Source: a virus. From it: a stretch of 64,000 nt of DNA. The stretch lies in the UHGV virus genome UHGV-0171999; one strand, 5' to 3'. Below are positions 11,229-53,237 of the stretch, piece by piece. The notes below the pieces were generated by a model. That model did not search any database. It was not told the DNA's origin and was given only the letters and a program-made list of their open reading frames with translations. A program made the position numbers and the translations under genes. Numbering within the stretch: position 1 is the stretch's first letter; each line of letters begins with the position of its first letter.

Positions 11229-12794
11229 TTAGATACCTTTAACATATACACGGCGGAAGTAAGCGTTTTTACCAAGGCTATTCAGAATAGAAGGCATACC
11301 GCTCTGAATGCGAGAAGCCGGAGCCTGAGCAGCGGATTCTGCAAATGGGTTGATACCGATACCGTAACGAGTTTTGAATCCCATTACTGGTTGGAAGTTC
11401 TTCGGATCGGAACCACGCAGCGGAGTCAGAGCTACATATGGAGCGTAGTAAATACCAGCATCCATTTCGTTCGGACCTTTATAACCTACAGTGAAATAAT
11501 CCTGTTTAGCATACTGGTCGATATATACACGGTATTTACCACCCAGAACACCAGCAAATACCGACTTGGTAGTATCAGTGTTAAAGCCGGTAGCCAGACC
11601 CTGTGCAGCATAAGAAATGCCGGTATCAACTGAAGCCAGAACGTTAACTACGTTACGGGAAGCGATAATGAAGTTACCTTCACCACGACCGGTCTGACGA
11701 GCAATTTCAACTGCTTCTTTGTCAATCTGGAACAACAGAGCTTTAAAGGATTCACCTGCCCAGCGAGCACCACGAATATCGATTGGGTCCTGGAAGTCAA
11801 ATACACCAGCTTTAGAACCCGGAGTCAGGGTCATACCAGATTTACCAACCTGAGCTGAGTAGTTAATCCAATCAACAACTTCACGGTTGATTTCCAGCAT
11901 GATTTCGGTAGCCAGAATACCAGACAGTTCAGCATCAGCATCCATACCGTGAACAGCGCGGAGGTCTTGTGCTAATTCGATAGAGTAAGCAGCTTTCAGC
12001 TGGCGAGATTTAGCTTCGATAACTTGTTTATCGATACGGAAGCCCATTTCATTCCATGGGTTATCGGTAGAACCGTTGAAACTTTCCTGAAGTTCAGCAA
12101 TAGAAGTAGCCATACCTTCAGCGATTTCTACCAGTACACCAGCTTCCATTTGTTTCTTAATTTCAGCATCTAATTTGTCTGCGTCAGATGCGCCTGAATC
12201 AATTTGTTTAGCTGCTGTAGCTTGCAGATATACAGTACCAGTGTCCTGGAAGAAGTGGGTGTAAATAGTTCCAACTTCAAGAGTATCACTTGCTTTCAAA
12301 GCAGCGAATTTCTTAGCAGCACCCTGACCAGAGAACATTGCATCTGGACCATACATTGGGTGGAATGCTTCTTTAGCGCCGGCAGCGATTGGGTCTTTAC
12401 CATATACTGCGCGCAGTGCGAATACCTGACCGGTCGGACTGTTCATCGGCTGAACACCGCAAATATCGAAAGCAATCAGGTTAGGAATAGCACGACGTAC
12501 CATACCCATAACAGCTGGGCCAATCTGAGTTACTGCGCCAGAAGTCTGACCAGCAGCGATGTTAGTAGCATTGTAACCGTGGTCACCACCGATTTCAGCT
12601 TCTGTTAAGAAAGAACCGAACGCCTGAGCGATTTTTTCGTCTTTGTACTCTGGAGCTGTCTGGAAATCTTTTTCCTGGTTTTCAAAGATTTTAGCGATAA
12701 TCGCTTGTTTGCTATTAGCAATTTCCGGTAAACCTTCACCTTCCAGTAATGGCTTCCATTTGTTCAAAAGTTCAGCTTTAGTTTTGATAGTCAT
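11229..12794 (-). CDS. 23: major capsid protein gp23
   Basis: 521 aa, MTIKTKAELLNKWKPLLEGEG...; length and sequence as T4 gp23. Confidence 0.95.
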   Translation of the reverse strand: MTIKTKAELLNKWKPLLEGEGLPEIANSKQAIIAKIFENQEKDFQTAPEYKDEKIAQAFGSFLTEAEIGGDHGYNATNIAAGQTSGAVTQIGPAVMGMVRRAIPNLIAFDICGVQPMNSPTGQVFALRAVYGKDPIAAGAKEAFHPMYGPDAMFSGQGAAKKFAALKASDTLEVGTIYTHFFQDTGTVYLQATAAKQIDSGASDADKLDAEIKKQMEAGVLVEIAEGMATSIAELQESFNGSTDNPWNEMGFRIDKQVIEAKSRQLKAAYSIELAQDLRAVHGMDADAELSGILATEIMLEINREVVDWINYSAQVGKSGMTLTPGSKAGVFDFQDPIDIRGARWAGESFKALLFQIDKEAVEIARQTGRGEGNFIIASRNVVNVLASVDTGISYAAQGLATGFNTDTTKSVFAGVLGGKYRVYIDQYAKQDYFTVGYKGPNEMDAGIYYAPYVALTPLRGSDPKNFQPVMGFKTRYGIGINPFAESAAQAPASRIQSGMPSILNSLGKNAYFRRVYVKGI

Positions 12795-44606: not shown

Positions 44607-44679
44607 TGGGAATTAGCCAAGTTGGTAAGGCACTGGATTTTGATTCCAGGATGCAAAGGTTCGAGTCCTTTATTCCCAG
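44607..44679 (+). tRNA. tRNA-Gln (anticodon UUG), no encoded CCA
   Basis: Cloverleaf folded by hand: acceptor TGGGAAT/ATTCCCA, anticodon loop TTTTGAT, T-arm GGTTCGAGTCC. Confidence 0.8.
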
Positions 44680-44680
44680 C

Positions 44681-44767
44681 GCGAGAATGGTCAAATTGGT
44701 AAAGGCACAGCACTTAAAATGCTGCGGAATGATTTCCTTGTGGGTTCGAGTCCCACTTCTCGCACCA
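44681..44767 (+). tRNA. tRNA-Leu (anticodon UAA), long variable arm, CCA encoded
   Basis: Acceptor GCGAGAA/TTCTCGC, anticodon loop CTTAAAA, T-loop TTCGAGT, 3' ACCA. Confidence 0.8.
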
Positions 44768-44772
44768 AATTT

Positions 44773-44846
<74 letters not shown>

Positions 44847-44856
44847 ATTTAATTTA

Positions 44857-44931
44857 CTCCGTGTAGCTCAATGGCAGAGCGATCGCCTGTTAAGCGATTG
44901 GTTATAGGTTCGAATCCTATCACGTCCGCCA
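44857..44931 (+). tRNA. tRNA-like gene with anticodon GUU (Asn-type), acceptor stem only 4 of 7 bp paired
   Basis: D-arm GCTC-AATGGCA-GAGC, anticodon arm ATCGC-CTGTTAA-GCGAT, T-arm ATAGG-TTCGAAT-CCTAT, 3' GCCA; 5' CTCCGTG pairs poorly with 3' CACGTCC. Confidence 0.45.
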
Positions 44932-44935
44932 AATC

Positions 44936-45011
44936 CGAGGCATAGCTCAGAAGGAAGAGCAAGGACCTTCTAAGTCCTAGGTCGTAGGTTCGATCCCTAC
45001 TGCCTCGACCA
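44936..45011 (+). tRNA. tRNA-Arg (anticodon UCU), CCA encoded
   Basis: Acceptor CGAGGCA/TGCCTCG, anticodon loop CTTCTAA, T-loop TTCGATC. Confidence 0.8.
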
Positions 45012-45380: not shown

Positions 45381-45690
45381 AACCGGGTCGCTACCGGTAA
45401 GTCGTCGGACTGATGTTCCCTGCGTAAGGACTGGCATTAACAAATCTTTACGATCTGTTAATGTCCCCTTACATCACAGCAGAAACGGCGCACAGAATTA
45501 TCGATTCGAGGAAATATCTTTGCCGTAAGCCGAGTAGCGTTTTTGACGGAACGTTCGGATATGGTCGAGATATGGCCTTTTAAAAATATTGAGTAGCGTC
45601 AACTGCTTAATAACCGGGTTCGAATCCCGGCGTTTCGTACAAACACTTGCCTTAGCAGGTGGAACCCCGACAAGGTTGCCGCAAGGCTTA
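45381..45690 (+). ncRNA. structured non-coding region, candidate small stable RNAs (T4 species 1/2-like)
   Basis: No plus-strand ORF over 310 bp; several hairpins; tRNA-like T-arm CCGGGTTCGAATCCCGG; ends at a terminator. Confidence 0.35.
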
Positions 45691-45717
45691 GCCCCGACCA
45701 AAAGGTTGGGGCTTTTT
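45691..45717 (+). terminator. rho-independent terminator closing the tRNA/small RNA unit
   Basis: GCCCCGACC-AAAA-GGTTGGGGC hairpin followed by TTTTT. Confidence 0.7.
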
Positions 45718-52060: not shown

Positions 52061-52386
52061 TGACAGATACGCAACTTTTCGAATATCTTTATTTTTCGCC
52101 AAAAACTATTAAAAATAAATTGGTGAATCATTTTGAAATTTTGGCAAATAACAACGTCTTGAGCGAATTTTATCCTAAGCAATACAAATTACAAAAAGGT
52201 GTATTCAAAGGATGCAGAGTGTTGTGCACCGCTCCTAATGCAAAGTTAATGAATAAAATTCCATATTTTACCATGGAATTTATTGATGGGCCTTTTAAAG
52301 GACTAATTACCCAAAGTTTAATGGCATATGATTCTGAGCCATTTTTAATTAAAGAACAATCTTGGATAAATTTATTTTCTAATTGA
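52057..52386 (+). CDS. hypothetical protein (vs.7 position)
   Basis: 109 aa; ATG overlaps upstream stop. Confidence 0.5.
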
Positions 52387-52394
52387 GAGGTTAT

Positions 52395-52757
52395 ATGAAA
52401 GCATATCAAATTCTTGAAGGCACGCATAAAGGTACTATTTATTTTGAAGACGGTATTCAAGCACGAATTATTGTATCTAAAACCTTTAAAGAGGACTCTT
52501 TTGTAGACCCAGAAATTTTCTACGGTTTGCATGCCCGTGAAATTGAAATTGAAACACAACCTACAGTTAAAATTGAGGGTGGTCAACACCTGAACGTTAA
52601 CGTTCTGCGTCGCGAAACTCTGGAAGATGCAGTTAAGCATCCGGAAAAATATCCGCAGCTGACCATCCGTGTATCCGGTTATGCAGTTCGCTTTAACTCT
52701 CTGACTCCGGAACAGCAGCGCGACGTTATTGCTCGTACCTTTACCGAGAGTTTGTAA
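52395..52757 (+). CDS. GrcA/YfiD-like autonomous glycyl radical cofactor protein
   Basis: 120 aa from ATG at 52395 with GAGG RBS; C-terminal glycyl-radical motif [31 protein letters not shown]; 3' half GC-rich with host-like codons. Confidence 0.8.
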
Positions 52758-52978
52758 TGGCAAAGATAATTATTGAAGGTTCTGAAGATGTGTTAAATGC
52801 TTTCGCCGAATGGTTTAGTAATTCAGGCGAACAACAATTTAACGAAGCGTGGAACATGGGTGATATTAATGGAATTTATCCTACGACAGAAATTTCTGTT
52901 CAAGGATATGGCATTCATGAGCCTATTCGTTTAGTTGAATATGATTTGGGAACAGGTGAGGAAGTAAAATATGATTGA
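52757..52978 (+). CDS. hypothetical protein (vs.5 position)
   Basis: 73 aa ORF, translationally coupled. Confidence 0.5.
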   Translation: MAKIIIEGSEDVLNAFAEWFSNSGEQQFNEAWNMGDINGIYPTTEISVQGYGIHEPIRLVEYDLGTGEEVKYD

Positions 52979-53237
52979 AGATATTAAAGGCTATAAGCCA
53001 CATACTGACGATAAAATCAGTAAAGTGAATGCAATCAAAGACGCTGAAGTTCGTTTAGGACTTATCTTTGATGCTTTATATGATGAATTCTGGGAAGCGC
53101 TAGATAATTGTGAAGACTGTGAATTTGCGAAGAATTATGCTGAAAGTCTTGATCAGTTAACTATTGCTAAAACGAAACTCAAAGAAGCTAGTATGTGGGC
53201 TTGTCGCGCAGTGTTCCAACCAGAGGAAAAATATTAA
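52971..53237 (+). CDS. hypothetical small protein (vs.4 position; Acb2-type sponge candidate by synteny only)
   Basis: 88 aa ORF in the vs.3-vs.8 block. Confidence 0.45.

Follow-up and report, generated by a model that had tools for sequence, protein, structure and literature searches.

Gene vs.6 and its product

The window analysed here is the whole 64-kb stretch of viral DNA, and the locus at 52395-52757 is gene vs.6 of a T4-like phage (Tequatrovirus). It is an auxiliary metabolic gene of textbook T4 biology, and its annotation and biochemical function are already known. It encodes a 13.9-kDa product of the glycyl radical cofactor type, which we take to be the orthologue of T4 Y06I on the grounds of its size, its family, and the T4 ORF nomenclature. 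The gene order in this region, vs.8-vs.7-vs.6-vs.5-vs.4-vs.3-regB-vs.1, agrees with that of RB51. The following features were located in vs.6 and immediately upstream:

52387..52390, plus strand: Shine-Dalgarno-like GAGG, 4 nt 5' of the vs.6 ATG, read from the sequence
52395..52757, plus strand: coding sequence of vs.6 (presumed T4 Y06I orthologue), 120 aa, with ATG at 52395 and TAA at 52755-52757
52395..52572, plus strand: phage-type 5' half, codons 1-59, with GC3 of 0.20 and 47.7% nucleotide identity to E. coli grcA
52573..52744, plus strand: host-derived conversion tract, corresponding to E. coli grcA nt ~200-371 and to the structured glycyl-radical domain
52613..52613, plus strand: third position of the Arg73 codon, CGC here, a synonymous C/T site polymorphic in E. 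coli and in T-even phages
52668..52694, plus strand: glycyl radical signature RVSGYAVRF, residues 92-100, located by translation and by the PFL/YfiD alignment
52677-52679, plus strand: GGT codon of the radical Gly95, equivalent to GrcA Gly102 and PFL Gly734
52745..52757, plus strand: phage-type end codons ACC GAG AGT TTG TAA, for which E. coli has ACT GAA AGC CTG

The upstream neighbour vs.7 ends with a TGA at 52384-52386. The N-terminal start MKAYQ is kept in all phage homologues, which agrees with the ATG at 52395. At the other end, the stop codon of vs.6 overlaps the start codon of vs.5 (TAATG, 52755-52759). The phage-type end codons GAG AGT give the stretch GAGAG 8 nt 5' of the vs.5 ATG, where T4 has GAA. 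This stretch could be a candidate ribosome binding site of vs.5, and the last vs.6 codons may often remain phage-type because GAGAG serves vs.5 translation. Promoter and terminator scans around vs.6 gave scores no better than those of shuffled sequence.

The DNA of vs.6 is 97-98.3% identical to that of hundreds of Tequatrovirus genomes (T2, T4, and RB51 among them), and the identical protein sequence was found on 122 contigs in public databases. The T4 counterpart is also 120 aa long, also lies between vs.7 and vs.5, and shares the internal mosaic junction, with 97.0% nucleotide identity. The differences are only allelic: the window phage has the K-12-like CGC at 52613, and its host-identical run ends earlier.

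The product of vs.6 is a stand-alone small protein (~14 kDa, 120 aa between vs.7 and vs.5) rather than the C-terminal part of a large glycyl radical enzyme. It scored 67.2 bits against the Gly_radical family (Pfam: PF01228), for a cutoff of 22.2, and matched E. coli YfiD (PDB: 6owr) with E = 4.6e-42, aligned to YfiD residues 28-127. The last 60 residues are 100% identical to those of E. coli GrcA. A first-pass annotation of the window, made from its letters alone, had described the protein as GrcA/YfiD-like with the signature RVSGYAVRF, and these matches bear that description out. Residues 697-759 of PFL, the C-terminal domain of PflB (PDB: 1h16), were also matched (E = 5e-26), with 52 of the 63 residues identical (~83%). 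This domain has the same fold unit and the same RVSGYAVRF signature, and it is the part replaced by the spare protein; PflB as a whole, however, is a 759-residue enzyme (~85 kDa).

PHROG 1209 was matched over the full length of the protein (residues 1-120, E = 5e-63), and the grcA-type gene of this family is present across Straboviridae, T5-like phages, and jumbo phages. Tequatrovirus vs.6 is named "autonomous glycyl radical cofactor GrcA" in both RefSeq and UniRef. Against the NCBIfam equivalog model for GrcA (TIGR04365; family IPR011140), the protein scored 154.6 bits (E = 1.4e-45), which is below the 170-bit cutoff because the N-terminal half is diverged; E. coli GrcA scored 234 bits on the same model. 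By the strict equivalog cutoff, vs.6 would be assigned to a GrcA-like paralogue lineage (PHROG 1209), though the databases call it GrcA. The radical-domain part also matched the models for GrcA2 and GrcA3 (NF008341, NF038360) with 94-106 bits, below the model cutoffs, but members of those two families have only ~80 residues and no N-terminal half.

E. coli GrcA/YfiD is likewise a small stand-alone glycyl radical protein, and its N-terminal half is homologous to that of vs.6. In this half, however, the phage protein is only ~27-32% identical to the bacterial one, is 7 residues shorter, and is devoid of the conserved bacterial NSFWLLD and C-x-C features. The phage gene also differs in its setting, a cluster of early genes in a lytic phage.

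Mosaic structure of vs.6

The two parts of vs.6 differ in base composition and codon usage. Codons 1-59 (52395-52572) have a GC content of 0.34 and a GC3 of 0.20, whereas codons 60-120 (52573-52757) have a GC content of 0.49 and a GC3 of 0.46. Among 185-nt windows over the 64 kb (mean GC 0.36, sd 0.046), this 3' block belongs to the top 0.5%. The codon CTG was found five times in the 3' part, and CGC, CCG, CAG, and CGT three times each. In contrast, CTG, CGC, CCG, and CAG are absent from the 5' part, which has CTT/TTG, CGA and a single CGT, CCA/CCT, and CAA. The contrast between a GC-rich 3' half with host-preferred codons and an AT-rich 5' part, noticed at first pass, is thus reproduced by the GC and GC3 values and by the codon counts.

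The highest GC peaks of the window (0.51-0.54) are located at 11293-11477 and 12377-12561, inside a 521-aa ORF (11229-12794, minus strand) that presumably encodes a gp23-type major capsid protein. These peaks (11293-12561) were considered as host-derived DNA and rejected, since no E. coli match was found for them; the GC content is therefore not a sign of host origin there and may reflect a highly expressed late gene. Another GC peak, 45529-45713 (0.51 over 185 nt), lies just 3' of a tRNA cluster (44607-45011), in which ARAGORN finds four tRNAs (Gln, Leu, Gly, Arg) and Rfam adds a fifth at 44860-44924. For 45529-45713, neither an Rfam hit at the gathering threshold nor an E. coli megablast match was found.

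In a codon-aware alignment of vs.6 to K-12 grcA, the max-chi2 method placed a breakpoint after gene nucleotide 178 (52572), where identity rises from 47.7% on its left side to 96.7% on its right side (Fisher p = 1e-26; the observed value was reached in 0 of 2000 permutations). Third-position identity to E. coli grcA is 32% left of the breakpoint and 92% right of it. The nucleotide alignment of the 3' part to E. coli grcA that had been proposed as a check gave 96.8% identity. The host-like block stands as first described, but its start does not: it had been put at 52560, and the boundary lies ~13-18 nt further downstream, with the breakpoint at 52572. Across the grcA genes of all 5,426 complete E. 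coli genomes, identity to 52573-52757 is 96.8%, and the longest perfect run with E. coli grcA comprises 152 nt (52578-52729). When the whole window was searched against all E. coli genomes by megablast, the vs.6 tract was the sole match. Four synonymous differences from E. coli were found in 52745-52757 and a fifth at 52730 (ATT vs. ATC); the right end of the tract in this phage is ambiguous and lies between 52729 and 52744.

The same left junction was found in all of ~650 phage records, and the mosaic is present in T2, T4, and RB51 among other genomes, with a reading frame continuous over the junction. An assembly artefact, with host reads collapsed into a phage contig, is next to impossible as the source of the chimera, for 726 independently sequenced phage genomes have the same mosaic, the same junction, and a continuous frame. 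The tract is nearly host DNA, so contamination might change single consensus bases, a point that bears on the metagenome contig L096. The tract was seen only in Tequatrovirus and Mosigvirus. Homologues with the MKAYQ-type N-terminus are found in many genera of Straboviridae, in T5-like Demerecviridae, and in RaK2-like jumbo phages, and the 3' blocks of these other lineages are just 63-88% identical to E. coli grcA.

The 5' half is diverged from bacterial GrcA but related to it. Comparison of N-terminal profiles built from diverse phage homologues and from bacterial GrcA by hhalign gave a probability of 98.4% (E = 1e-14, 60 columns, 27% identity). Because homology to the GrcA N-terminus persists in the 5' half, the mosaic arose by replacing part of a homologue already resident in the phage, rather than by fusion de novo. 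The simplest history begins with an old grcA-type gene of the phage; in the line from which Tequatrovirus and Mosigvirus descend, its 3' half was then overwritten. Very probably, then, vs.6 is an old grcA-type phage gene, a spare part for PFL, with its radical-domain half overwritten by Escherichia grcA. The first-pass annotation had suggested a chimeric or recently host-derived gene; recent host origin applies to the 3' half (dS 0.07-0.14; Escherichia clade in 198/200 replicates) and not to the 5' half.

The position of the junction is GrcA codon 66/67. The disordered residues 1-60 of YfiD have a part in the binding of cleaved PFL and in activation, and residues 61-127 form the structured radical domain, which substitutes for the lost PFL segment (PMC8683613). 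The tract therefore spans most of the structured domain (67-127 of 61-127), and its junction is close to the domain boundary. Both end points of the tract fall inside the conserved domain-coding region. Retention of the diverged N-terminal half may point to phage-specific tuning of the binding of cleaved PFL and of activation.

Mosaics of this kind have a known counterpart. The psbA and psbD genes of cyanophages are reportedly mosaics arising from intragenic recombination between host and phage, that is, auxiliary metabolic genes of phages with host-like segments from recombination with the host homologue. The gene, the hosts, and the phage group are different here; unlike the psbA/psbD case, the vs.6 tract is nearly the host allele and fits the structured YfiD domain closely, and its carriers, T-even phages, degrade host DNA. 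In a literature search, no earlier description of the host-identical tract or of its recurrence was found, though a mention in Wagner 2001 or in the Miller 2003 T4 review (PMC150520) is possible. For a known gene the evolutionary addition is modest; the analysis adds a clean and quantifiable case of a lytic phage in which the host allele has replaced a portion of a resident gene.

Donor, direction, and number of conversions

Synonymous divergence (dS) was calculated by the NG86 method over the 61-codon block. Between T4 and E. coli the block dS is 0.068, and between the window phage and E. coli it is 0.14. For comparison, the block dS of E. coli is 0.068 to a sister Escherichia species, 0.42 to Citrobacter, and 1.06 to Salmonella. 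In a neighbor-joining tree of the block, Tequatrovirus and Mosigvirus cluster with Escherichia (bootstrap 198/200), inside the enterobacterial sequences.

An alternative without any transfer is that strong purifying selection, or convergence in codon usage, gave the same identity in a highly conserved domain. In its favor, many lineages have the domain with an unchanged protein sequence, and several other phages likewise have a 3' block whose GC content is slightly above that of the 5' half. The synonymous-site controls refute this explanation, which is highly improbable. Phage RB16 encodes the same 61 residues (dN = 0) at a dS of 1.79 to E. coli, and therefore protein conservation does not force nucleotide identity. 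Enterobacterial species with a near-identical protein have a block dS of 0.4-1.2, and in other phage lineages the block dS to E. coli exceeds 1. Moreover, GC3 in Karamvirus is nearly alike in both halves (0.15-0.24 in the 5' half and 0.21-0.29 in the 3' half).

Near-identity by itself is symmetric and would fit a transfer in which a T-even phage supplied E. coli with the 3' half of its grcA; no specific support was found for this direction, and we give it hardly any credence. The 5' and 3' halves of E. coli grcA are evenly diverged from those of Escherichia sp., Citrobacter, and Salmonella. It is thus the phage gene, not the bacterial one, that is a mosaic, and the direction of transfer is from host to phage. 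In addition, divergence of the block from E. coli rises stepwise from Escherichia sp. through Citrobacter to Salmonella, and the base composition of the block is host-like rather than phage-like.

Two other chromosomal genes, pflB and tdcE, were considered as donors and rejected. The donor is grcA and not pflB, because the DNA match of the tract to pflB is merely 79.6%, as compared with 96% for grcA; at the protein level, identity is 100% to GrcA and 52/63 residues to PFL. Thus, the 3' half of vs.6 is the result of host-to-phage gene conversion from Escherichia grcA.

The number of such conversions was analyzed by comparing T4 with Mosigvirus (JS09 and contig L098). In the tract core, 0-2 of 167 nt differ between them (dS 0.05), whereas in the 5' half of vs.6 the count is 18-21 of 178 nt (10-12%, dS 0.5), and in the last 13 nt of the gene it is 3. 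Divergence of the flanking genes is higher still: 32% in the upstream vs.7 (dS 1.17) and 26% in the downstream vs.5 (dS 2.7). The difference between the tract and the 5' half is significant (Fisher p = 6e-6 to 5e-5), and this sharp drop in divergence means that the tract is much younger than the split between Tequatrovirus and Mosigvirus. The region of low divergence coincides with the stretch homologous to host grcA.

Variation within the tract was found in both phages and bacteria. At 52613, K-12 has C and the E. coli strains SK1144, 09-00049, and STEC17-190 have T; among the phages, C was found in the window phage, G3F7, and L093, and T in T4, RB51, and JS09. The T4 block is identical to the CGT allele of E. 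coli SK1144 at 183 of 185 positions. A second polymorphism, TCC/TCA at Ser94, is common to E. coli STEC17-190 and phage contig L096. The polymorphisms shared by phages and E. coli thus amount to two sites, so that informative sites are few, and L096 is metagenome-assembled, so that host reads could have altered its consensus. The right end of the host-identical run varies as well: codon 118 in T4, ~116 in RB51, G3F7, and L095, ~115 in L094, and 111 in the window phage (nt 335 here vs. nt ~356 in T4). These right end points are nested among the phages, and the unconverted remainder is phage-type (GAG AGT TTR/CTA), as in the unconverted RB16 and Lemur_ER36; Mosigvirus has a remainder of the same type.

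Two histories are compatible with a young tract. In the first, the tract has been recopied repeatedly from the E. coli pool, separately in Tequatrovirus and Mosigvirus, and evolves in concert with grcA; we lean on this history tentatively, putting its chances slightly short of even. In the second, a single conversion took place in one T-even ancestor, and recombination between co-infecting phages then passed the tract between Tequatrovirus and Mosigvirus, the host contributing no more DNA; this is a possible course of events, though a doubtful one. A single event is the simplest explanation of one left junction in all of the ~650 phage records, and AGT at codon 118 is common to almost all sampled phages. 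T-even phages recombine readily. Degradation of host DNA by T4 early in infection should limit recombination with the host. Besides, the 5' half of vs.6 is less diverged between the genera (dS 0.5) than vs.7 (1.17) and vs.5 (2.7), and vs.6 may therefore have been exchanged among phages as an entire gene. On the other hand, the island of near-identity (0-2 of 167 nt) ends exactly where homology to the host ends, with 10-12% divergence directly 5' of it and 3 of 13 nt differing directly 3', and exchange between phages would not be expected to halt at these limits. Phages carry CGC as well as CGT, the two major E. coli alleles, and they differ in their right end points. RB69-type phages, moreover, are reported as unable to recombine with T4 (PMC6024577).

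If the tract is recopied repeatedly, the spare part would always fit the PFL and PflA of the host exactly, and the N-terminal half of the phage protein would evolve separately. Recurrence would also imply that the chromosome still recombines with a phage that is strictly lytic, breaks down the DNA of its host, and carries modified cytosines in its own. In that case, vs.6 and grcA would make a natural marker for the frequency of recombination between T-even phages and their hosts in nature, and would show how phages keep host-interacting modules matched to the host.

At a larger scale, the entire vs.6 gene forms an island of similarity between T4 and Mosigvirus (window positions 52095-53057 compared with contigs L083, L084, and L098). 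The shared host-derived tract may be a recombination anchor between these diverged phage genera.

Proposed function and homologues in other phages

The T4 protein Y06I (~14 kDa) is activated by PFL activase and restores pyruvate formate-lyase cleaved by O2 (Wagner et al. 2001, BBRC 285:456, as cited in PMC8683613). One of the two roles suggested at first pass, repair of host PFL damaged by oxygen, is thereby already on record for the T4 orthologue, as PMC8683613 describes. The window protein differs from the T4 protein by one residue (T54P), and its activation by PflA and its rescue of O2-cleaved PFL are predicted by analogy with the in vitro work on Y06I, as outlined in the same source.

The following sequence of events is proposed. 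The host activase PflA would install a radical on Gly95 of the C-terminal domain of vs.6, and this radical domain would dock into PFL cleaved by oxygen at Gly734 and restore catalysis. The infected cell would thus keep its fermentative output of acetyl-CoA and formate under micro-oxic stress, presumably to the benefit of the phage; an in vivo benefit of vs.6 to the phage was not documented in the literature covered. In Tequatrovirus and Mosigvirus, ~170-185 nt at the 3' end, which code for the structured radical domain, were overwritten by an Escherichia chromosomal grcA allele via homologous recombination, and selection or repeated conversion may keep this domain in exact agreement with the host system.

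A second suggested role, that of a spare part for the anaerobic ribonucleotide reductase of the phage (NrdD) instead of host PFL, fared worse and is very unlikely. Class III ribonucleotide reductases are also cleaved by O2 at the glycyl radical. T4-type phages encode both NrdD and NrdG, and PMC8683613 speculates about spare parts for other glycyl radical enzymes. However, in a BLASTP comparison of vs.6 with a T4-type NrdD (RB51), no significant similarity was found, the best match having E = 9.1 and lying away from the radical site. The radical motif of NrdD is different (RRTCGYLG), and no sequence similarity to its C-terminal RxCGY loop was found in vs.6. The radical domain of vs.6 is that of GrcA and is closest to PFL, and it is PFL that Y06I reportedly rescues in the account given by PMC8683613.

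Disrupted copies of vs.6 were found in two phages. In Enterobacteria phage RB55 (KM607002.1; L178:251-426), 13 nt (GGTTATGCAGTTC) are missing across the radical Gly-Tyr codons; this deletion shifts the frame, and the gene is unannotated in the RB55 record. In Klebsiella phage KPV15 (L085:301-662), a frameshift interrupts the vs.6 homologue, and the annotation lists two short ORFs in its place. Therefore, either vs.6 is dispensable, at least in the laboratory, with the RB55 copy being a pseudogene of natural or laboratory origin, or the disruptions are sequencing errors.

The 3' block of the KPV15 gene (Jiaodavirus, Klebsiella phages) has a GC content of 0.55 and is 88% identical to the best enterobacterial grcA in a panel without K. 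pneumoniae. This block may be an older, separate host-derived tract. A 19-kb IMG/VR contig labelled viral, IMGVR_UViG_2706794630_000006 (L121), was considered as a second recent transfer and rejected: it carries a complete bacterial-type grcA with the N-terminus MITGIQITK and with 86-91% identity in both halves. This grcA is Yersinia-like (91% to Yersinia grcA) and is probably bacterial DNA or a prophage flank, not a phage gene.

In the T5-like Escherichia phage HildyBeyeler (L090:58-688), a GrcA-type gene with the MKAYQ start lies directly 3' of tRNA-Ile and tRNA-Met, and its 3' block is ~71-75% identical to enterobacterial grcA. Longer GrcA homologues were found in the IMG/VR phage contigs L111-L116 and L123; their 3' blocks are mostly closest to grcA of Pasteurellaceae (79-83%), the matches belonging to Haemophilus, Aggregatibacter, and Gallibacterium. 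There are thus hints that in other phage lineages, too, the radical-domain half resembles that of the presumed host clade.
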